Translations under genes and position numbers: made by a program
The notes under the pieces: model-generated
What the model saw: the letters and a program-made list of their open reading frames with translations, nothing else
Told to the model about the DNA's origin: nothing
The model's database searches: none
Shown: positions 3,293-38,100 of the stretch, in pieces
How the letters are laid out: every line of letters begins with the position of its first letter
How positions within the stretch are numbered: position 1 is the stretch's first letter
Assembly (NCBI GenBank): GCA_045837725.1
Contig: JBEWZL010000257.1
Location: 248,001 to 312,000 of the forward strand
DNA length: 64,000 nt
Direction of reading: 5' to 3'
Origin: Vermamoeba vermiformis
Taxonomy: Eukaryota

Positions 3293-6200
3293 ATGTCCTC
3301 ATCCCGAAAAGAGTTAAAAGTAACGTACACGATCACCGTCGTGAGTGTCGAAGGCTTGCCCAAAAAAGCCGAAGGATGTGGAATTCACGTCGAATGGAAG
3401 GGTGGAAGAAAAGACAAGGATACGTAAGCGATAGCGTTGAATTAATATCATAAATTGAATTTTAATGCAAGATCAGATCTTCATTAAAAATTAGCTTATT
3501 ATTAAATTGGTTACATTTATGCTATAAATTACAACAAATTCCAAAGCAGCGCAATATTTGCTGGATCCAGCAAGTATATTTTGCTGATTTTCAATTTCAG
3601 ACCAATGACGCCCTCAGTTTCACTCGCAGAAGGCAAAACATCCGTTGAATTCGCACACAAATTCGAAATGACCACTACACTCGAATACACCGATATCGCA
3701 AACAGAAAATTTCAGGAGAAAAATCTTGTCTTCTCTGTCGTTGGTGTAAGCTTCTTTGTGCTGATATTCTGTAGAGACGTATATTAATATCAACGCGACT
3801 GTAGGAGAAAATTAAGAAGAAAAAGGACGCTGTCATCGGCAAAGCATCAATTGATTTGGGCACAATGGCCTTCCCGGGCAGTTTTCAACCGCGTCAAGCC
3901 CTGAAATTGGCCACCAAGAAAGAGAAAGAAGGCGCTGGAATTTTGAACGTACGTATGAGTGCTATTATAGGAACAACAGATATTGATTAGATTCGCAGAT
4001 TGTTGTCAACAGTAAATGGGCTGCTAAGGACGGCAAGAAAGTTGTCGCGTAAGTTATAACAAGAATGAGCTGGACTTAGATTGGGTGCTAATATGATCGC
4101 AGTGGCAAGAAGGACAAAGAAAAGAGCGATAAAGATAAGGACAAGGATAAGAAAGACAAAGATAAGGACAAGAAAAAACTTGATAAGCGCTCAAGCAGAC
4201 GTGATCTCAAAGACAAGGACAAGAAAGACAAAGACAAGGACTCGAAGTCTGATGCAGGTGATGAAGCCTCAGGCAGCGAGTCATACAGCTTCGCCAAGAA
4301 GAGAGGCGGTGACGCGCTTGAAGAGTCATCGTTCCAAGTCAACGGCGAGGACTATCATTTGGAGAGTGAAGCAGAGACATCTGACGGTGACGATGAACCC
4401 AGCATGTGGGGTGAACCTCCAGATAAGGCAAGTCAATACGAGTCATCGCGTATCATACGAACTAGTTACTAACATCGACTTAAGACCGAAGACTATTTAT
4501 CCGACAGCGATGAAGAAGGCGATAAAGTCGAGTTCAAGAAGGACAGTTCTTCCGCTGATTTAACCTCGAGCTCCGCCAGCAGTATGTGAAAACGATCAAA
4601 TTCTAACCATTCTAACATAACTGTAGAAGACGACAAGAAGAAGAAAGAAGACGACAAAAAGAAGGAAGAAGAGGATAAAAAGAAAAAAGAAGAAGCCGAT
4701 AAAAAGAAAAAGGAAGAGGACGATAAGAAGAAAAAAGATGAGGCTGACAAGAAAAAGAAAGAGGAAGAGGACAAAAAGAAAAAAGAAGAGGAGGACAAGA
4801 AAAAGAAAGAAGACGCTGACAAAAAGAAAAAGGAAGAAGATGAAAAGAAGAAGAAAGAAGAAGAGGACAAAAAGAAAAAAGACGAAGAAGACAAAGACAA
4901 ACGGTACGTGTGATCATTGCATCCTTTGTCAATACTAATTCCTGTTTTAGAAAAAGTATCAGAGGCTTTGGTGCTTTGTTTGGCAACAAAGACAAGGACG
5001 CCAAGGACAAGGATAAGGACAGCAAAGATAAGGACAGTAAAGACAAGGACAAGGACAGCAAAGATAAGGACAAGCGTGACGATAAGAGCGACAAAGACAA
5101 GAGTGATCGTGATAAGAGCGACCGAGATCGTAGTGATAGAGACCGCAGCGACCGCGATCGAAGTGACCGCGATAGGAGTGACAGGGACAAAGATCGAAGC
5201 GATCGCGACAGGAGTGACCGTGACAGCAGGCGTGACTCCAAGATCCTCACTTCACAACCTTCTTCAGCGAGCCTCTCTGGTGCCTCAAAAGACGAGATTG
5301 ACAAGTTGAAGGCTGACTTTAGCAAGAAAGAAGAGAAGTTGCAGAAAGAAATCGCAGAGAAGAAGGAGCAAATCACAAAGCTCGAGAATGAATTGAGCGT
5401 GGCTAAAGTACAAATTCAACAAGATCAAGATCTGAAACAGTGGGATCGCAAGCCTCAAGACAAACAAAAGGCTGAGTTGAAGGACTTGCAAGAGACTAAC
5501 CGCAACTTGTTGGTGAAGAACGAACAGCTTGAGAAAGACAACAAGACCATGAAGACAGAACAAGACAGCTTGAAGCGACAACAAAAGAGACTCGAAGAAG
5601 AGCTCTCCGAGCTCAAAGAGGAGCTTGAATCTGCCAAGGCGAAGGGCTCTACCTCATCCAAGTCTTCTTCCACCAACAAAGACAGTCCTGCCAATGATCG
5701 CACTGAAGAGTTGAACAAAAAGATTTCGAGCTTGCAACGAAAATTGGATGATCAGCAAGACACCAACAAGAAACAACAAGAAACGATCAAGCAACTCGAG
5801 AGCGATTTGAAGAAGGCTCAAAGCGCTGCAGCTAGCGTAAGTACTAGTGACCCAGTGACCCTTATTCGGACACTACTAACACGTTATCAGCGACCTCGTG
5901 ACAGCAACGAAGAGAAGGTGATGGGCATTGTGTCATCGATCAGCAAGGGTCAGGAGTTGGACTCGCTCAAGGACCGCATCAACGCGTTGCAAGATGAAAT
6001 TGACAACTTCCACCACGTTGAAGATTGGGTCTACGGCGCTGAATTCAAATACGACGGCAATGGCAAGAACATTACTGCCACTGAACTCGCGAACTACATT
6101 ACTGATCACGCTTTGTTGGAGTCTGATGACTTGGACAAGCGTGACTTCTTGTTCCACTTGCTCAAGGCCACTGTTCGCAGTTACAGAGTATGTGTTACAT

Positions 6201-15850: not shown

Positions 15851-17876
15851 ATGGCCTTTTTCAAGAAGATTGGAGAGAAGACTAAGGAGGCAAGTCTGCA
15901 GATCCGTCGGAAATCTTTTTCACTTGCTTTACTTCATCATTTCGTAATCTTTATTACTTTTATTAATAACGACTTGATATTATAGACCTTCACTAAGGTT
16001 AAGGGTGGTCACGTAACCAAGGATGAGACCTTCAAAAAAGAAAAAAAGAGATTCCAAGAGAGCGAAAAAACGTACGAAAAGATGGTTAAGGACGTCAAAG
16101 AATTCAACGCCACTTCTATTAGTAAGTACCTGCTATTTAATATAACAAAGCCAACAATTTAAATTCGCTAGTTTTCTAAATTACCAAAATAAAAGAATTT
16201 CGTCCGTTTATCTATTTTATAGCTCCTATCGAGACAATAGAATTCCATAGCAACTTAATATAATATTCTTATTTTTGTTTATTTTTTAAGAGCAACTTGA
16301 CTACATGCGAGAAATCTACAAGGACTTGATGTCTGGCATGAAGGACGGAGGCCCAGCCTTTGACTTAGCATCAGAAATGGTCAATGTCATCAACCAAATG
16401 CTAGAAACTAAGACTAAAACACTGGTAAGTCCACAGATCGTAAAAATGATTTTTCGTGTTTCCGGATCTGTTTCGTGACTTGACGTAAGCCAGAATCTTT
16501 TCGATTTCGAAACGCATATGCTCTTATTAAGACCTATGTATCTTATTTACCATATTAGTTTCGGGTTCTGAAACTTTTCGTGTTCGGATGTCGACCGCTT
16601 TCTTGAACTATTTCCAACTTTAATTACTTTTAAAGCGACGTAAAATATATGACTCGTTTTAATTATCCGAATATAGGACGAAAAGACCAGCAAAGATTTC
16701 CTTGATCCTCTCAACAGATGGGTGCAACAATACAAAGAGATTCATGTGAGTTGCCTCCAAAGTGATTACGATATTTCCCCACTAATCATTCACAAATAGG
16801 AACGCATTAAAGAACGCAAGAAGAGAAAGACCGAATTGGACAAATTAATTAATGACGCCAAGCACTACAAAGAAAAGGGTGACGCCCGCCTGTCCTCAGT
16901 AGGTTTCAGTTTAACGCGAATAGTTGTATAATTCTTTGATATTATTCGCTGCTCGATTTTCGGACGGAGATATTATTTTTGGTGATTTTCGTTATTGACG
17001 CGTGACTTCTAGACCGAGTCCAAGTTGGAAGCTGTTAAATTGTCGTACGAGGAGTTGAACAAAGAATTGATTGCTGACATGGCTCGCTTGTACGAAGAGC
17101 GCATGTTTGTCATGGAGCCCTTGCTTGCCAACGTAAGTCCAGCTGTTCAAAGTATTCCATTGCCGTGTGCTCATTATCGTGCTTGTAGTTGATCGTGTCT
17201 CAAGTGGCATTCTACAACGCGATGTCTGCTTCAATTTCTCAAATTCAAGCGCGTCTTATGTCAGTCAACTTGCGTTCAGCTTTCGATCACCCTCTTGTCA
17301 TCACACCACGTGAACGATCGAGCATCAGCAAGTTCTACGCTCAGACTGGCAGCAACTACGAGAGCGCTGTAAGTACTCTTTAGAGGATTTATATGTGACT
17401 GTTCGAGCTAACATTTGACCGTGTGTAGGGCTCTGTATTGCCTCCTCCTCAATACAACACTCCTGCTCCGTACGGCGGCCAGCCTCAACCTCAATACGGC
17501 CAGCCTGCCCCTTACAACAACGCTGGTGGCTATCCTCCTCAAGGCCAACCTCAGTACGGTCAACCTGCTCCGTATGGTGGTGCTCCCAGAGCAGCTCCTG
17601 GCCCTGGTCCCGCTCAACCTCGTCCTCCTCCACGCCCCATGTCAGTCAGTAAGTACCTCGAGCGCTATACTTACCACGAACAGCGAGTTAATATTGCCTA
17701 TTTCAGACGCAGTTCGCGCTCGCGCCATGTGGGACTTCGCAGCTCAAGATGCCAGTGAATTGAGCTTCCGCAAGGGTGATGTTATCAATATTTTGGAACG
17801 AAACGGCGAGTGGTGGAAAGGAGAGTTGAACGGCGCTGTCGGAGTTTTGCCCGCTAACTACGTACAACTGATGTAA
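15851..17876 (+). CDS. Amphiphysin/Rvs167-like N-BAR, Pro/Gln/Tyr-rich linker and SH3 protein
   Basis: N-terminus MAFFKKIG...VTKDETF, helical BAR exons, a PQYGQP repeat linker, and SH3 AMWDFAAQDASELSFRKGD...WWKG..GVLPANYV. Confidence 0.88.
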
Positions 17877-18229: not shown

Positions 18230-20083
18230 ATGTTGAAGCAAGTTAAGCTCGATATTGCCCAAACTAACATGGCCTTGTTCGGCACCGAGTAAGTTTGCCT
18301 CCTCTCCAGATTTCATGAAATAGAATTTCTCTTGCTTGCTTTCAAATCGAGCGATTATGCTTATATATGACTACAATATATTTTTGTAAATACTGATCTT
18401 CGTTTTAAAGCGTCGAAAAGAACATCAAGCACGCCGCCGCTCAGACTGAAGCCGCTTGGCACGGATGCGGCCAACAGAAGTAAGTTTTAATGCCTACGAT
18501 GCTCGCGATTACTGTTGGCCTTATTTTTGGGCTAAATGGCTCATCGTTAACATATTTGAATTAATTAAGTAACGAAATTTAACATAATTATTTGCAGCGG
18601 CATTGAGATCTGGCGCATCAACCAATTCAAGGTCGACAAGGTCCCTAAGGAGAGCTATGGTCAATTCTTCGAAGGAGGTAAGAGACAAAATCTAATCTTT
18701 AAGACGATTTTAATGAATTTACCCGATCGTTACGAAAACGGCAAGATTTTGTTCGTTAAAATACTGACAAATATTTACCTCTTATGAATAGACAGCTACA
18801 TCGTCTTGAAGACCGTCAAGAGCTCCGACGGCAAGGTCCACTACGACGTTTTCTTCTGGCTCGGCACTTACACCACTCAAGACGAGGCTGGTACTGCTGC
18901 CTACAAGACCGTAAGTACCATAATCGGTTCGCTCTATTTACACGTTTTTTATCTTTTCGCGGTCGGATCATGATCAACTAAAAAAATTTTCAGGTCGAAT
19001 TGGACGACTTCTTCAAGGGATTGCCTATTCAACACAGAGAGGTAATTTTAAATTCAAGATGGCTGAATTATTTTTAAAAGATTCGAATCTTCCTTCATGA
19101 AGGAGCTGAAAGTCTAACTGTCTGTGGATGTAGGTTCAAGGTTTTGAGAGCGAGCAGTTCTTGTCTTTGTTCTCTAACATTGGTGGCGTTCGTATCTTGA
19201 AGGGCGGTAAGTCCAATCATTAGACGATTGCAATAACGCATGAATTGACGTCCAATGTTTTCAGGCCACGACACTGGCTTCAAGCACAACGCCCCGACTT
19301 CATACAAGCCCCGTTTGTTGCACGTCTGCGGCACCATCAAGAACGTCCGTGTCGTTGAAGTGCCCTTGTCTGCCTCATCGCTCAACAGCGGTGACGTCTT
19401 CATCCTCGACTTGGGCTTGACTGTGCACCAATGGAACGGCAAACAATCCAACGTCGCTGAACGCAACAAGGTGCGCTACCGCATAGCAATATTGTCGTTG
19501 TCTTGTACTGACCAACCCCGCACAGGCTGCTCAATTGGTTCGTGCCATTGACGACGAGCGTGGCTCCAAGGTCAACGTTCAAGTGCACGACGAGGGTGAC
19601 AAGGACTTGGCTGAGTTCTGGCAACACTTGGGCGGCGAGAAGCCTGTGGCTGCTGCTGGCGCTGCTGCTCCTCAAGCTAGCGCTCAAAAGTCTCTTTGGA
19701 GATTGTCTGATGCCTCTGGCTCACTCACCTTCACTAAGGTCGCTGAGGGCAAGGTACGTCCAAATGATGTTACAAATCAAGCCAAGCTCAGGTCTCATTA
19801 TTGCCATTAGATCTCTCGCAGCCAAATTGACTCCAAGGACGTCTTCATCGTTGACTCTGGCTTCGAAGTCTTCGCCTGGGTCGGCAAGGCTGCCTCTGTT
19901 GGTGTAAGTAGTCTCGCAGCTGTGCACTAGTCGTCAGTGGGTCTAATTGTCTCGCAGGAACGCCGCACTGCCTTGCAATACGCCTTGAACTACTTGTCCA
20001 ACCAAGGCAAGAACCCCGCCACACCCGTCACTCGTATCTTGGAGGGTGGTGAGAACGAAGTCTTCGAGCAATTGTTCCACTAA
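18230..20083 (+). CDS. Gelsolin family actin-severing protein (3-domain severin/fragmin type)
   Basis: [51 protein letters not shown] and EVFAWVGK. Confidence 0.93.
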
Positions 20084-20206
20084 ACGATTGAACTGCACAC
20101 CTTTTGCTGGGTCCAGTTAAGTTAGAACTTACTTGTTTTTATACTCACTAAGTAAATACTGCCTACGAGCACTATTTTAAATAATGTGATTTTGTTACAA
20201 ATAGAG

Positions 20207-21845
20207 CTAGCTTTGTTCTTGCTCAGTACTTTGAACGGTGTTCTTCTTCTTGCTCCTGTTTCTGTTCTTGTGTCGGCCGTGTTTAGCGAGTGCCCAAATA
20301 CCAATGAACAACAAATAGAGTCCAATGAGTGAGCCGCATACGATCAACGTGAAGTAAGGCTGCAGTCTCTCTTTACGCGTGGGAAGGTGCTCCAGCGCAG
20401 CAGTGGCATTGAAGTACGTGTCAACAAGCGATTGAAAAGGAGTGCTCGTGTCTTGTTGCAGTTGAAATATGGCGAGATTGATGGCGTCAATCGTCTCAGC
20501 ACTGACACTAGGACTGAAGCTGAACACGAAGTCGAGGTCGAGGAATGACGGACCATTGGACTGAATGTTCCGCGTTGAGGTGTTGTATTGCAGTAGCGAT
20601 GGTTGATCGTGCTACAAAAACGTACATGTTATTCTTTCGGTCCTATTTGCATCGATGCTGAATAATAAGCTTACCAACAAAAACATGGTGCTTCCATTCA
20701 ACAGGGAGTTCACAGCGTCAGACAGTGTTGGGTAAGTGTAGATCTGTTATTGACAGGTGTCAGCATCACTTATGACGACACAGCGGTCACTTACATTGGC
20801 GTTAATGCCACGCAACAAAGGCAGAGCAGGGCTGTAATTGACCACCGAGACATTTTGAGCTGTGAATGAATTAGAATAATGACTGATCGATCACACTGCC
20901 CAATCTTACCTCGCAAATCTTCCAGACTTGCAGGTGGTGGAGCAAGCTGGAACAGGGTGAGTAGCGAGGTCAATGTGGCTGACACTGTGAAGGCGAAGAA
21001 GAAGCTGAATAGAATCCACACCAGTGTCCAACACATGCCCGAACGACTTTTCGGGACCTTGTCGCCGTATCCAACTGTCGCGCTCGTAACTCCTGCCCAA
21101 TAGATGCCGTCCTGCATGCCCAGCAAGTAGCGCTTGTGAAAGGTGTCGTTAGCGTGGTTCGGTCGTTCTTTCTCCAACAGCCACATGATGTGCGAGGCAA
21201 CTACAGCTAAGACAATCCAAAACAACATCTGACCCCATAAATCCGGTCGACTGAAAGCCTTGATAATGGCCGATGTGGTAGCTAAATGAGTGTTAGCTAA
21301 AGTACGAATGGCTCTTTTGACTCACTTACTAACGGTATTTTGAGAAATGAGCGCAGCACGGAGGAATGTGTGATAGTACGAGACTGAGCTGGTGAGTGTC
21401 GGGATAATACTCAAATCTGACTGCGGAATGCCACTGATGCCAATGCTCGGGCCTATCAAATGTGTTAGTTCCGGTTGACACGTGTCACTCGAAAGTTCGT
21501 CTTACCGAAGGATGAATTTCGTATCGCACGAGCCCAGTCAAGTAAATTATGAGTGACAACATAATTAGCGGCTGAAAATTCTGTAATCTGAGCCACTTGC
21601 TTCCAAACTTCCAAACTAAATCCGCTAATTTGAGTTGGATCCACATGTTGTATTCCTGGGCCAGTGAAGTTTCCACAATTAACGTAAGAGTCCGCACATA
21701 AGAAAATCTAGCGAAATTAATGCAATGTAATGAAGCTGATCCTTTGTTATTCACTTACAGCAGTCGTAAACGTTTGCGCCGATATTAAACTAGCGTGAAA
21801 TGGTAGCACTATCGCTACAATAAATAAATAATGCCTTAGTAGCAT
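20207..21845 (-). CDS. GluR0-like ionotropic receptor / ligand-gated K+ channel (signal peptide-S1-M1-pore-M2-S2-extra TM)
   Basis: S1 ISGFSLEVWKQVAQ, M1 ending IMWLLEK, pore GIYWAGVTSATVGYGDKVP, M2 SATLTSLLT, linker SLEDLRG, S2 HDQPSLLQY..INLAIFQLQQD, and C-terminal TM PYFTLIVCGSLIGLYLLFIGIWALA. Six introns. Confidence 0.85.
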
Positions 21846-22071
21846 GTTGAATGTTAGTTATAAATTGAAAAATGAACTGTTCGATGTTCAAACAATGACG
21901 CACACATGCTGGCAATGCAATTACAGCTAGTGCACAAGCGCAATTCAGATGAAATTCGACCAGAAACTCCTCCGAATAGCTCCAATAATGTTACGGAAAT
22001 ATCGATCGAAGTATCTTCAGTTTAGCAGAGGTTGATCCGAATAAAGTTTATAAAATAAGATACAGCCGTGT

Positions 22072-25000
22072 TTAGAACTCAAAGGTCGCGTCATCTTTGA
22101 ATCCAATCTTCTCCAACATGGGCAGTGCAGAGAGCGAGACCATGGCTGGAGGGCCGCAGACAAGTGCCACAGATCCGCTGCCAGGCTGGAACAGGTGCTC
22201 GTTCAACATCTTAACGTCAATTCTGCCGACACCGAACTTCCACTCAGGGCCCGGCGAGTCCGAGACAGTGTACCACAGCTTGAAGTTGTGATGTTTTTGC
22301 GCCAATTCATCGAGCGCGTCTTTGAGCAAGATGTCGTTCAGCGTGTGATTGCTGTACACGAGCGCCAGTTCAGTGGTGTCATCAGGGTCGTCCAAAATCG
22401 CTTTGATGAGCTGGTACATTGGTGTAATGCCCGTGCCACCAGCAATCATGGAGATGCGGCGCACGCGAATAGGATGGCCGTGCACTTGAAGAATGCCGCG
22501 GGAGTGGTAGTGTAAGTGACCTTCGGGACCTTTAATGCGCAGAGTGGAGCCCAGTTCTAGCTTCTCGAGGTACTGCGTCATAATGCCACCTTGATTGAAA
22601 TGAGGATTGCTGCCTGAACGATAAATCTTGATCACCATTTCGATGACACCCTGCAATGACACGTGTCAAAAACAAATTGACATGTTTGCTCCGATCAGCA
22701 GTACACTTACGCTATCATCGTCCTCTGCGATGGGTGCAGTGGGCGTGTAAGGTCGGATCACCAAATGACCGCCGCCGAGATGAGCTTCCAACAGCACGTG
22801 TTGACCGACAGGCAGACCGAGCGGCTTCATCTTTTTGTCTTTCAACGCGAATTTGAAGATGTACGAGTCCGGACTGATCTTGTCGCGTGCAGCCAATGTG
22901 ACGTCGATCCACTTGCGAGGCTGCAAGGCCCAGCGAGAATCACGTGCCAGCCCGGGCAAGAACTGACCTTCACCGAGCTCCGAGACGAATCCAATTGAGA
23001 AGTTTTGCATCCAGCGCTTGGCATCGTCGCCGTGAATGGAGTTGAACAGCTCTGTGATGTCTTTGCCCGCATTCACCACGATACTGGCCTCACCACCAGG
23101 ATGCATTTCAGTGAATTCAGTCAAGTCGTAGACCACGCCGTCAACGATGACCCAAGGGTCGTCGGGCTTGTTGTGCTTGCTGACCTCGTCGGGCGAGATC
23201 AAGCGATATGGCGGAGTGTGCTTGAGATCTTTGACGACAGGTGTGATTGCCTCGGCCATCCAGCCACCTTTATGCGGACCGGGCACGGTTGGGTGATCAA
23301 ATGTAATCTTGCCATTGCCTGCTGAGTCCAACAGTCTCTTTTTGACCGTGTACCAGCTGTTATTGAACATGCCCAACAAGTTCCTGCGGCGTGCCTGTTA
23401 GTGACTTGGCTCGTTCACTGAACAGTCGGAATAACTTACCAAGTGATGTCACGTGGCTGAGTGTTTGAAGCCTGGTCCCAAGCACGCACTTTGATGCCGT
23501 CACCGACCAACAACTTCCATTTGGGCAGATCTAACTTCCAATGACACCACGTCCAGCGCTTGAATCCATGGCGCACACTGTGCTTGGGGAACTCGCGCTC
23601 AGTGCCCATCCAAGTCTTGCCGTCATCTAATGACACTTCGACACGTGTCACTTCTCGGCCTCCACCGCTGTACGCAATGCCTTTTATGGTAATGGTCTCT
23701 TTGGTGTCGCCGTGTAAGTCAATGACGTCACCGTGCGCCGGGCTGTAAATGATGCTGTTGACGTTCTGTTCGTTCAACAACAAGTCGCCGCGCTTCCACC
23801 AGTCCTCGCGATCAGCCTTTGTGAAGCCAACATAGGACGGCAGGACTCTGTTGTCGTGCCAGTGGTACCAGCTCTTGGACTCTTCGTTCGTGACTTCGAT
23901 GGACTTGAGCCACTTGATCATGCGACCACCGACCCAACCCGGGATGACCAATCGTACGGGGTAGCCGTGGTCTGGAGGCAGTTGCTGGTCGTTCATTTGA
24001 TAGGCCAAGATAATGTCATTGGCTGGGTCCAGCGCAACGGCAAGTGGGATACTAAAAACGACATTAGAATTACTAAATGACCGTAATATTATTAGTAATT
24101 ACCTAGTGCCGTAAGTTCCGTTCTTAGGATCATCAGCGCCATCAAAACAGACGTATTTTGCGCCGTCAGCGTACGACTTGACACCGACTTGCTTCAAAAT
24201 GTCGCACAGTCTTGCACCGCGCCAGTACGCCGTGCCGATGCCACCACTGCCCCAGTCAAATCCTTTGCTGTGCCGAATAGCATTCACTTCTTTGCGTCTG
24301 TTACCGTCGCAGGAGATAGTGACGGGAATGTTGATCGAGGGCAAGCTGGCCAGCTCGTCCATGGAGAACTCTTTGGGCGTGTTGACCAAGCCTGACACGC
24401 TCACTTTGTGCGTCTTCCAGTCCAGCTTGGGCACGGCGGCGTGATTTCTGACGTAATGCACGGCATTTGAGGTGATGAGGCCCTCACGCTCGAGGACTTT
24501 GAGGGACTGCTCGGAGTTGAGTGGATGTGCTCCAGTCAAGCGCACGTGTTCCTCGCTGCGAGGGACCCAGTCGTCGGGCGTGTTCTTGTCGATATCGAGC
24601 ACGTGATCTGGAGGTGTTATTTCTTTTTTAGGTGACACAATCTTGTCTTCATCGAGGTTCAAATAATCGCCTTCAAGGCTGTGTTCAACAGCTTCATTCG
24701 CTGGTTTTCGGTGCTCGTGCTTTTCATCTTGCTTTTCGCCTTTTTTTTCGTCTTTTTTCTCGTCTTTTTTTACATCTTTTTTCGCGTCATGTTCGTCTTG
24801 TGGCTTGGCGTTTTTATCCGACTTTTCGGTGGCATGCGGATCACTGCGAGTCTTGGACAGTCCTGCGTTTAGCAATTGTCTGCGCTCTTCAGGGGCTAGT
24901 CCTGTAGGCCCGCTTTTTTGTCTGCGAATTTCTTTTTGCTTCTTAAATTCTGCTTTGTCTAGAGTACCACATCCGAGGCCAATAGACAAGCGATAATCTT

Positions 25001-25277
25001 TGCTTCCTTTGAACTCAGTTGATCCATGTCGATCGTGTTCAAGAATGTTATAAGTATTCTGAGGATAATTATTAGATAGGTGATAAGAAAAAGGGAATCT
25101 AGGTGAAGATACTTTGATCGAACTTAATCTCTAGCATATTATTTAAAGGATTATTCCAATTATTACCTTGATATTTAGTGTAGTATTGGGTTTTGCATTA
25201 TCATCAGGCTGCTTGTTAAGCTGCTGTGGGACACTTACCCCTACTTCTTCAGCCTGGTCTGTTGAGTGATTAGACAT
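22072..25277 (-). CDS. nia: Eukaryotic-type NAD(P)H:nitrate reductase (Moco-dimer-cytochrome b5-FAD/NAD)
   Basis: TPDDWVPR..RLTGAHPLN, HYVRNH, CDGNRRKE (Mo-ligand Cys), DHGYPVR..GGRMIKWL, GMFNNSWY, b5 HPGG, RPYTP, GTGITP, CGPPAM and terminal FEF. About 4 introns. Confidence 0.92.
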
Positions 25278-35196: not shown

Positions 35197-38100
35197 TCAC
35201 CTTGGAGTTTTCGCATCTCGTCCACTTTGTGAACCGGAGCTAAAAATTAATCTCCTTTGTTTTGATTGACACAGATTTGTGAGAGCGAACGGTCGATAGC
35301 GGATCGAACAACGGAAGCTCAAAAAGATATGTCTGCTACTTACTTCATGTATAAAATAATGGCTAAGCTTAGATCCGACATGCTGTGCGCAGGTATGCGC
35401 TCGATCTGCAGGTTTTCCATCGGGGTGTTGCTTAAGAAAGTCATATTCCACTCAACGCTTTCGAATTTTACGGTTCCTAAAATATACGAAATTGTAAGTT
35501 ATGAAACGGAGTTGGATGTCACAAATTGAAAAATCCAATTATTGGATCTGTTCGCTGAAATATTTCATTGAACATAAGATTCTATTGTGCAACGTACCAA
35601 TTCTTGCAGAAACCACCAACAAGTAGTCCTTGCCTGGCTCTAACGTCGTTTCCAACGTAACCTCCCTTTTGCCAGCATCGCCTTTAAGCAAATATTCGTA
35701 AGTACTGGATTATAATTGCTATGGACTCAAATCCATCCAATTCCTGTCCATAATTACGCAATAAACAGCCTTCAGCGTTTTAACTAAAAATTCAATTTCG
35801 ATGGCGAAGCGTTTTCTTTTTCAGAACATCCGTAGTAACTGTACATACCAGTAGCAGCCACGAAAATGAATCGTTCCAGATGCGATGAAGCATTTTTGTT
35901 CCTTTCGAGTATATAGAGGCCATGTCTGTTGTCTACATCTGCACCGCAGGAGAAGCGCAAGTCCTTCTTCGACAACGTGACGTACACTTTGGTCGCAGTT
36001 TGTACTCGAATATTCATCTGAGCACCGTGAGGGGTTTCATTCGAATAGACGCCTATCAAAAGGTTAGATCAGTCCTACTACATCCGTGCAACGGTTCAGT
36101 TGAGTGGCACGTACCATCAATTCTAGTCTTAGCCCATCCATCTACCTCACCAATTTTACACACGGCAATATCACCGAAGTGTTTCAAGAAGTCTTCCCAG
36201 CAGATCCAGAACGCACCAGGCTCAGACTTGAAGTTGACCAATTGCTTCAACTCGTCAGTCCATCTGCTTGATTCATCGCTCCAATCTCCGAGCCACGAGA
36301 AGTAGCCCCAGGGGTTGCGCAATCGGAGCAATTTGTGGCCACGAACCTCGCGTACATCGAGCAGACCGTACGCGTGGTTATTGACCAAACCGTATTGCTA
36401 GAATGAGTGCGTTAGATTGGTATTATGACAATATTTAATTAAGACCTACCTTCAAATTGAAGCCCGACGCCTTCTCATCAATAGTCAAATGGCGCGTGGC
36501 ACAGCCCATCAAGAACCCGTTCTGTTTAATGAGGAGGTATTATTATTAACATGTAATAACAACAATATACCTGTTTGTCCGACAACAACTTCTTCCAAAC
36601 CTCGTTACTAAACACGATGTAAATAAGTTGAAGAGACTGCAAATAGTTCTAAGCTTACGGATCCTCAATGCCCAAGAAGTACGAGATGCACGGGGCTCCT
36701 GTCAAGTCATAAAGCGATTCTTCAAGTGTACCGGCAGTGAGGGCTTGGTACGACTTGTTGAGCTTTGCATAACCTGCGTTGAAAGGTAAATAGGTTGATA
36801 TATTGACTATATGGCACGACGTACCTTTCTCGAGTAAGCAAACCCAAAGATCGTTCTGAGCTGAGTGCGTGAAAATAGGTCCGTACAACAGCGAACCACT
36901 CGGCAACACCTTTTGGAAGATTTCAATGTCGAATGGCGCGTAGCCAGTCTTGGCCAAGCACGGCAAATAATCGTCCACGACTACTTGGACCCATTCTTCA
37001 CCGCTGCGATATATGGTATAAGATAACGTACGTAGACAAATTAAAACAGTGCCATACCGATGGAACTGCACGCAATAGACTCCTTGTGGGTTGATCTCGG
37101 TCGTCACCATCAACTTGAGCACGAGTTCAGGACGTGCTGCAATGACGGACAATGCGCCTAAGAACCAACAATCGCCCAATCTGCCTTGCTGAATATCACT
37201 CGGGTCAATTCTTCCAGCGAATAGTGTAGGCTTGGCTGTTGAGGAGAAGAACTCTTCGGGTCTCTTCCAAGTGACAGGTGTCTTGTCTTTCTCTTTCAAG
37301 TCTTCCATGTCAATGTAAAGTGACGTCAGCAGCGGTGCGAACTCGGGATCTGTGAATTTGCGACCGCTTCGCTTGCAAGCCATTAGCACTTCGGTATAGC
37401 TGTTACCACTTTCCTTGAGACCGGGTACTGCTTGGGCCTTCATTTTCAATTTAGTCTCGCAGTCTTGCGACAACAAATAATCATCCAATGTCGCTGTTCT
37501 TTGTGTGCATTTAAACTTGAAGCTCCAAGGTTGATTAGCGTCGACTGGCGTAATATCGATGACGTGTCTGCGGACTTTCTCGTTCAAAGGCAAGAATACC
37601 TTAACGAACGGTGAAACGATCTTGGACATGTTAACATTCTGCGTGTCACTGAGTGTCAGCTCGAGGCAGAAGGGTATCTGTTGCTCGGCAAGATTGTTGT
37701 CTACTTCGAACGTGTATTCGCTCCTCAGCTTTGTTTTGTGCAAATAAATGCCCTCAGACAAGTACTTCATGCTCGTTGTAGGCTGGCTGTCCCGCACTGG
37801 ATCGACGCTAAAAGAAGGGTTAAATACTATCATCACTAAACATATATCTATACCTTTCAGTTCCTTCGTCCAGTCGCTTGGTCTTTTCTTCCTCTTCTTT
37901 CTGTGCCTGCTCAATTGCCTCTTTCAATCGACTGATTGCGAGCTCAAGTTTTCGTCTATGAGGAATTTGAGTCACGCCCAATTGTTGCACTAGCTGAGTA
38001 GATCCCAGTGATAATAACTTTGCACCATCTACTCCAAGCTTGGTGAAGTTGTCTTTGTACTCAGACAGCCCTAAGCTCTCGATCCACACGAGTACTTGTT

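Follow-up and report, generated by a model that had tools for sequence, protein, structure and literature searches.

What does a eukaryotic receptor channel look like that keeps the potassium filter of its bacterial relatives and also carries the additional membrane helix of the animal receptors? The question is raised by a gene on the minus strand, at positions 20207–21845, of a 64,000-nucleotide (nt) stretch of Vermamoeba vermiformis DNA (GenBank assembly GCA_045837725.1, contig JBEWZL010000257.1, positions 248,001 to 312,000 of the forward strand), called the window from here on. In the textbook account, glutamate receptors go back to the fusion of an inverted K+ channel with a bacterial binding protein, the arrangement found in GluR0. 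To our knowledge, AvGluR1 of a rotifer is the only eukaryotic form cited that still has the K+ signature. The product of the gene, referred to as the window protein, is likely to be a subunit of a small channel of the ionotropic glutamate receptor (iGluR)/GluR0 superfamily which combines the K+ signature with a fourth membrane helix (M4), has no amino-terminal domain (ATD) and is missing the canonical arginine of the binding pocket. By homology, such a channel would be ligand-gated and K+-preferring. How complete is the gene? Which relatives does its product have? And what would open the channel?

The gene and the parts of its product

The coding region (21845–20207, minus strand) consists of seven exons and six introns and yields 1323 nt in frame, or 440 amino acids (aa). 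The ATG at 21845 is the first in-frame ATG downstream of a stop five codons upstream, and the frame closes with a TAG at 20209–20207. All six introns read GTAAG...YAG (GT-AG type), with lengths of 51, 53, 48, 50, 51 and 63 nt; two of them, introns 2 and 3, have a CTAAC box shortly 5′ of the acceptor, and the retention of any single intron brings a premature stop (6 of 6). The parts of the gene, in the order of transcription, are these:

21759–21845, minus strand: exon 1, aa 1–29, with the signal peptide at about aa 1–24
21708–21758, minus strand: intron 1, 51 nt, GTAAGT..TAG; its retention gives a stop at aa 33
21506–21707, minus strand: exon 2, aa 30–97, first part of S1
21453–21505, minus strand: intron 2, 53 nt, GTAAGA..CTAAC..TAG
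21330–21452, minus strand: exon 3, aa 97–138, second part of S1
21282–21329, minus strand: intron 3, 48 nt, GTAAGT..CTAAC..TAG
20910–21281, minus strand: exon 4, aa 138–262, with M1, the pore loop, the second transmembrane segment (TM) and a PPP linker
20860–20909, minus strand: intron 4, 50 nt
20795–20859, minus strand: exon 5, aa 262–283, start of S2
20744–20794, minus strand: intron 5, 51 nt
20675–20743, minus strand: exon 6, aa 284–306, S2
20612–20674, minus strand: intron 6, 63 nt
20207–20611, minus strand: exon 7, aa 307–440 and the stop codon, with the remainder of S2, M4 and a basic tail

Homologues from the protein searches (numbered P0001 and so on) follow the spliced product closely. 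P0001, an uninterrupted open reading frame (ORF) of 324 aa on a 1206-nt contig, is collinear with aa 116–423, with 134 of 308 residues identical (44%, E 2e-81) and three small gaps that lie away from junctions 3 to 6. P0005 (402 aa on a 1375-nt contig) and P0006 (431 aa on a 1451-nt contig) align from end to end, with model aa 25–429 (E 2e-50) and aa 23–438 (E 8e-48), respectively. Across the homologue alignments no gap falls on junctions 1, 3, 4, 5 or 6, and a gap of two residues lies beside junction 2. The frame, the splice signals, the retention stops and the collinearity with uninterrupted, transcript-sized homologues thus give the splice model strong, if indirect, support, and they bear out the original prediction of a gene with six spliceosomal introns. 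Judged by its sequence, 20207–21845 is an intact, spliced eukaryotic gene. A tblastn search found no second copy within the window.

How is the protein built? Hydropathy places hydrophobic segments at aa 1–27 (signal peptide), 152–175 (M1), 218–251 (second TM) and 389–416 (extra TM). Together with the pore motif they give the order signal peptide, short S1, M1, pore loop with TVGYGD, second TM, S2, M4 and basic tail, in which S1 and S2 are the two halves of the split ligand-binding domain. The membrane parts lie as follows, with the matching helices of a structure model of P0006 that is described below:

21169–21240, minus strand: M1, about aa 152–175 by hydropathy; helix 137–161 in the P0006 model
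21061–21078, minus strand: TVGYGD, the K+-channel signature, aa 206–211
20944–21042, minus strand: second TM (M3 in iGluR naming), about aa 218–250; helix 201–233 in the P0006 model
20282–20365, minus strand: extra C-terminal TM (M4), about aa 389–416, 28 aa by hydropathy; helix 374–417 in the P0006 model

There is no ATD, because S1 begins about 5 residues past the predicted cleavage site of the signal peptide in a protein of 440 aa in all. The signal peptide, the unbroken TVGYGD filter, the additional C-terminal TM and the lack of an ATD had each been read from the DNA in the original prediction, and each was recovered. The N-termini of P0006, P0008 and P0011 resemble the signal-peptide region of the window protein, and a Cys33/Cys40 pair in exon 2 recurs in P0005 and P0006. 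The window protein has nine N-x-S/T sequons, seven of them in S1/S2, against a median of one in 99 bacterial-type proteins, and two are near-invariant across its closest relatives; they point to an S1/S2 domain that would pass through the secretory pathway and face outwards. Behind M4 comes a tail with many Lys and Arg residues, as would suit a C-terminus in the cytoplasm.

Does the protein belong with GluR0 by sequence? Of six exon translations scanned against Pfam, the pore exon alone gave real matches. It passes Ion_trans_2 (37.9 bits, cut-off 22.5) and falls short of Ion_trans (24 bits, cut-off 25). A profile made from 146 bacterial-type GluR0-like proteins gives one collinear alignment to model aa 52–374 with 187.5 bits, which agrees with the predicted GluR0-like arrangement of S1 and S2 around a pore; scored separately, the pore reaches 102.2 bits and S2 reaches 40.9 bits (E 6.6e-9 at Z = 1e6). 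These scores demonstrate the homology of the pore and of S2 to GluR0-type channels; S1 is assigned on the strength of collinearity and of the fold of its relative P0006. Searched against the PDB by sequence, a profile of the closest relatives finds the pores of KvAP, KCNQ1 and KcsA best (E 1e-15 to 1e-10, with KvAP at 1e-15), and with the wide alignment the matches are 2pyy (the GluR0 homologue of Nostoc), GluR0 itself (1ii5, 1iit), the plant receptor GLR3.4 and AMPA receptors.

The AlphaFold model of P0006, calculated with an alignment of 125 rows, has a mean predicted local distance difference test score (pLDDT) of 89.4 and a predicted template modelling score of 0.75, with most 10-residue blocks above 90. 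It has the strand and helix pattern of a bilobed domain, two long helices with a pore helix in the middle of the chain, and a last helix at 374–417. Foldseek places ligand-binding and transmembrane chains of GluA2, GluA1, GluA4 and delta-2 at the top of its PDB matches, with E values of about 1e-17, 416–445 aligned columns, TM-scores of 0.45–0.58 and 14–17% identity. The fold shared with the animal iGluRs and plant receptors (AMPA, delta, GLR3.4) includes M4; the P0006 model aligns over almost its whole length with AMPA chains of this kind, and by its position the TM after S2 would be the counterpart of their M4. Unlike these receptors, whose ATD measures about 380 aa, the window protein is ATD-less and Arg-less and has a K+ filter in place of a Q/R/N-type loop; identity is about 15%.

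A small clade and its known relatives

With whom does the window protein share its extra helix? It belongs to a distinct small clade in which the TM after S2 is a common feature. In a FastTree tree of 120 rows, made without AvGluR1 or animal or plant receptors, the window protein, P0001, P0004–P0009, P0011, P0064 and P0111 stand on one branch (11 of 11 rows, support 99). Innermost are the window protein, P0001 and P0004 (support 98), which are joined by P0005, P0006 and P0007 (support 96); P0008, P0011, P0064, P0111 and P0009 follow. The full-length members measure 402–431 aa and have their parts in the same order; among the clade members, identity to the window protein ranges over 27–44%, and all 11 sequences have a TM after S2. 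They share a D/E-Q-x-S motif, a conserved N-x-T in S2 and a PPP-type linker after the second TM, and their second TM ends in [ST]-A-x-L-T-S-x-L-T, which to the eye resembles the SYTANLAAF motif as quoted in the accessible text of Price et al. 2012. In P0005 and P0011 the filter reads TIGYSN and LVGFGD, so that both escaped the pattern used to locate it.

A TM more than 150 aa past the filter occurs in 16 of the 155 proteins examined, namely the clade, P0046, P0053, P0121, P0132 and one channel of 1493 aa. The last is a multi-repeat protein unrelated to the clade. The other four are further ATD-less relatives with a K+ signature and a TM after S2 that stand next to the clade in the tree; one of them, P0046, has retained the canonical Arg, and its S1 contains a Cys-rich insert.

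How widespread is the clade? An exhaustive HMMER search with P0001 against 1.84 billion representative proteins gave 2538 matches at E <= 1e-3, seven of them at E <= 1e-30. The best 150 are mostly proteins of 330–400 aa of the bacterial GluR0 kind, with SBP_bac_3, Lig_chan and Ion_trans_2, labelled at their source as ‘transporter substrate-binding domain-containing protein’. A word-index search with the pore exon gave three matches among 214 candidates; the same search with the clade alignment gave 52 at E <= 1e-20 among 7999 candidates, three of them known clade members and 49 bacterial-type proteins with SBP_bac_3. None of the protein searches run returned a clade member from NCBI or UniRef. 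Of 18 proteins looked up in clusters, P0008 alone has a named source, a EukProt transcriptome of Ceratiomyxa fruticulosa (Amoebozoa); for the other clade members the sources are JGI, Logan and ENA assemblies, with contigs of 0.9–1.5 kb. Among metagenome contigs, the best 80 of 98 relatives all show at most 44% identity, apart from two short partial matches (48% and 56% over 27–56 residues), and these 80 held no genomic homologue with which intron positions could be compared. The ten longest matches on viral contigs are classical GluR0-type ORFs of 340–408 aa, with TVGYGD, that end right after S2 and lack M4; the IMG/VR contigs encoding such channels (L081–L089, L098 and L111) are 40–548 kb long. 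In an Atlas look-up with P0006, the nearest entries were cnidarian clusters of 469–547 aa, with Ion_trans_2 and, in 56–68% of their members, Lig_chan, followed by green-algal, diatom, plant, bacterial and giant-virus clusters. The cnidarian combination of the two domains is taken here as a lead only.

How does the clade compare with channels that have been described? Closest in plan are GluR0 (Slr1257 of Synechocystis PCC 6803) and the ‘Group 1’ of Ger et al. 2010, in which S1 and S2 likewise flank a two-TM pore with the K+ signature and no ATD is present. In length, S1 (about 120 aa) and S2 (about 130 aa) come close to their counterparts in GluR0, for which the accessible source text gives 1–140 and 256–385. 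The differences are that the window gene is eukaryotic and spliced, that its product continues after S2 into a TM and a cytoplasmic tail, and that this product has many N-glycosylation sequons and lacks the Arg of T-x-x-R-E. The accessible part of Ger et al. 2010 has the combination of binding domain and K+ filter known only from bacteria. AvGluR1 is likewise eukaryotic and, as its published description has it, keeps the TXVGYG signature and has a TM after S2. By the same description it differs in having the full eukaryotic iGluR architecture, as opposed to the ATD-less window protein, and in being activated by amino acids, whereas the clade lacks the canonical Arg. Small size is no novelty either: according to the accessible text of Greiner et al. 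2018, the chlorovirus PBCV-1 encodes GluR-like proteins with three TMs, 411 and 433 aa long, and glycine-dependent single-channel activity was obtained with one of them. The proteins share with the window protein their size, the three predicted TMs and the lack of a large N-terminal domain; they differ, as far as that description goes, in a pore weakly like that of mammalian and plant receptors, for which the text consulted does not mention a K+ signature.

The original prediction had presented the combination as singular. The order of domains is as it stated, but the chlorovirus proteins are ATD-less relatives with three TMs, and the lack of the Arg recurs in bacterial relatives (below). No paper was found that describes an ATD-less, M4-bearing eukaryotic clade with the K+ signature, in a searched literature that is thin on subscription journals. 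A eukaryote-wide iGluR tree (PMC12226733, Commun Biol 2025) contains a clade of Amoebozoa and Discoba, for which the accessible text gives the position only and no architecture, filter or binding residues. It is possibly the same group as the present clade, with its Ceratiomyxa member, or one that overlaps with it.

The binding pocket and the predicted gating of the channel

Which ligand would such a channel bind? Three places in the sequence bear on this:

21409–21441, minus strand: S1 loop GISGIPQSDLS, aa 101–111, where canonical relatives carry T-x-x-R-E
21358–21360, minus strand: codon of R128, a conserved Arg particular to the clade; it stands on the strand that follows the loop and leads from lobe 1 to lobe 2
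20597–20611, minus strand: HDQPS, aa 307–311, with D308 at the position of the acidic residue that binds the amino group of the ligand

The S1 loop had been singled out in the original prediction for having no Arg, and rightly so. The window protein has neither Arg nor Lys between I100 and H124, at a place where 2pyy, the solved homologue from Nostoc, has ...ITAERE.... Outside the clade, 86 of 108 rows carry R at the canonical column; inside it none of five does, the residues there being E (P0006), D (P0005), Q, V and, for the window protein, either S111 or I112 according to how a one-residue insertion is placed. The S2 side of the pocket is better kept. Its acidic residue is D or E in nine of ten clade rows and in the window protein (D308), as in 97 of 111 other rows, and it is followed by a Gln and a Ser that do not vary within the clade. 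Eight of ten clade rows have the S2 Ser, and none has the adjoining Thr (Q, Y, P, A or F instead).

The missing Arg argues, more weakly than the motif argues for K+, against a standard alpha-amino acid that would be held by its carboxylate. The ligand may nevertheless have an amino group, since D308 is kept together with the invariant Gln and Ser next to it. The insect ionotropic receptors are reportedly iGluR relatives that have lost the canonical ligand residues and sense ligands other than amino acids, a finding attributed to Croset and colleagues. They differ from the clade in being animal non-selective cation channels with an unrelated type of pore and are no closer in sequence. We favour a non-canonical ligand somewhat over an ordinary amino acid bound through R128; a role independent of any ligand seems the least likely of the three.

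How would the channel work? From homology, four subunits would come together around a pore of the inverted K+-channel type, as in GluR0, with their glycosylated S1/S2 clamshells facing outwards and M4 packed outside the pore module, as in AMPA receptors. When the clamshell closes around a ligand, the linkers to the second TM would be pulled and a gate at the end of that segment would open. The K+ preference is predicted from the signature motif; a pore with such a preference, once open, would let the cell hyperpolarise or lose K+.

Several observations weigh against this reading. Gating by a ligand of whatever kind is a prediction from homology. K+ selectivity is not guaranteed by TXVGYG, because AvGluR1 carries the motif and yet passes Na+ (Price et al. 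2012, accessible text). At the canonical column Arg is absent from 22 of 108 bacterial-type rows too (L, A, G, S, D and others), so non-canonical pockets may be common in the bacterial GluR0-like family as well. The pocket may even have found a replacement: R128, by its sequence pattern a candidate substitute, could be the Arg supplied from elsewhere that the original prediction had reckoned with. The profile searches that had been proposed along with the prediction went only partly its way. Ion_trans_2 passed, as described; Lig_chan (PF00060) reached 26.3 bits on the pore exon, under its cut-off of 30.8 in a scan by single exons that lowers the score, and none of the exons scanned singly reached SBP_bac_3. 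Even in the clade Lig_chan is passed by P0001 alone (35.1 bits). Scored by itself against the 146-protein profile, S1 shows no significant similarity to canonical ligand-binding domains (15.5 bits, E 0.33 at Z = 1e6). The structure model is that of P0006, 27% identical to the window protein, and not of the window protein itself. The clamshell is modelled for a relative, as a bilobed S1/S2 with a pore, and for the window protein it is predicted, with the similarity of S2 in its favour.

The last of these points concerns expression. In three RNA runs labelled with the species (X19–X21), of which 46–48% each was read and whose reads were placed at a likeness of at least 95%, depth is zero over 20136–22235, so that the proposed check of the splice model by RNA returned no reads on the channel gene. 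The reads that were placed (185, 201 and 306 in the three runs) all lie within 19800–20135, except for a trace depth of 0.49 at 22236–22300 in X21. There, a 54-nt GT..AG intron of similar style at 19904–19957, belonging to the neighbouring plus-strand gene, is spliced in 98, 112 and 157 reads. Do the runs come from the same genotype as the window? Every read has fixed differences from it, for instance T>C at 19852 in 76 of 76 and 67 of 67 X19 reads, with others at 19978, 19984 and 19989, and the reads diverge from the window a few bases beyond the stop codon of the neighbouring gene. The runs are thus of a diverged genotype, and at a threshold of 95% the reads of a faster-evolving gene may fail to be placed, which makes the blank over the channel gene weak evidence. 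The adjacent nitrate-reductase gene is also essentially without RNA reads in all three runs. The DNA run X1 covers the stretch with no differences; it is possibly the source of the window and hence not independent.

Could the channel be an ordinary one, gated by an amino acid whose carboxylate is held by another basic residue, most likely R128, or by an ion or water? This account is unlikely, and among the rivals it is the one that survives best. The R128 column holds R in five of the six clade sequences that cover it (H in P0011), against mostly G, Q or A in 111 bacterial-type rows, where R is never among the six commonest residues. The acidic residue for the amino group and, in most rows, the S2 Ser are still there, as an amino-acid ligand would have it. 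AvGluR1 reportedly makes use of anions when it binds its ligand, in work by Lomash and colleagues. It fits less well that the acidic residues at the Arg column of P0006 and P0005 would repel a carboxylate and that the Thr beside the S2 Ser has been replaced in ten of ten clade rows.

Or has the binding domain ceased to bind at all? S1 and S2 could be vestigial or structural, attached to a K+ channel that is constitutively open or gated by membrane tension, pH or ions. The strong degeneration of S1 and the binding-domain models of Pfam that stay below their cut-offs are what this would lead one to expect. It is nonetheless quite improbable. The clade-invariant S2 residues, D-Q-x-S with a Gly and a Phe further on, sit around the canonical binding positions, the bilobed fold of P0006 is modelled with high confidence, and a vestigial domain is unlikely to keep its motifs among members as far apart as these. 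That the gene is non-functional, an unexpressed relic or wrong in detail in its exon model, would agree with the zero RNA reads and with the gap beside junction 2, but is hardly credible for a frame intact over seven exons with canonical splice signals and homologues that look expressed, the more so as the RNA is of a diverged genotype and the nitrate-reductase gene next door is just as blank.

A ligand-gated, K+-preferring subunit with an altered pocket is therefore the reading that we keep. A eukaryotic clade with the K+ signature and the fourth helix but without an ATD would be a second, simpler intermediate beside AvGluR1, with which the sequence of events that led to M4, the ATD and cation non-selectivity could be tested. 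With its 440 aa, the subunit would be handy for structural work and electrophysiology, and its altered pocket could reveal a new class of ligand. A survey of pathogenic fungi reported no ligand-gated channels, so that such a gene would also be notable in a fungus. The weight of all this is limited by the small ATD-less relatives already known from chloroviruses and, as uncharacterised clusters, from databases. Could the clade be a surviving side branch of the transition from GluR0 to the eukaryotic receptors? M4 would then have been gained before the ATD and before K+ selectivity was lost, and in these free-living microbial eukaryotes the clamshell would now respond to some extracellular signal other than an alpha-amino acid, perhaps an amine or a different cationic molecule, in keeping with the acidic residues that two members have in place of the Arg. 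The channel would then be a ligand-gated K+ chemoreceptor outside animals and plants. We offer the scenario as a speculation, with little expectation that it is right in full.

Other features of the window

What surrounds the channel gene? Directly upstream of it, at 22080–25130 on the minus strand, lies a multi-exon gene for an assimilatory nitrate reductase with Oxidored_molyb (molybdopterin), Cyt-b5 and FAD_binding_6 domains. Its best named relatives, 40–60% identical, belong to Endogonales, chytrids, Ascomycota and green algae (about 55%); closest are early-diverging fungi at 47–60% (Jimgerdemannia 47%, Rhizophlyctis 55%, Borealophlyctis 57%), and the protein collection searched contained no close relative of it. 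The presence of this gene speaks against an animal source, and relatives this distant do not place the organism. On the other side, a gelsolin/severin-like gene, recognised by eye, occupies 18569–20085 on the plus strand and is convergent with the channel gene, the two stop codons being about 120 nt apart.

Further away, the region 4100–5230 is A-rich (AT skew 0.44 in 4001–6000) and made of imperfect tandem repeats of 15–96 nt with codons of the AAG/GAC/AAA type. It is open in long ORFs on both strands, which have no Pfam match and suggest a low-complexity coding region rich in Lys, Asp and Glu. On the plus strand, an ORF at 17412–17876 has repeats rich in Pro, Gln, Tyr and Gly, with what looks by eye like an SH3-like domain in a neighbouring frame. 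An ORF at 36655–37923 on the minus strand carries a calpain-type cysteine protease domain (Peptidase_C2, 118.6 bits).

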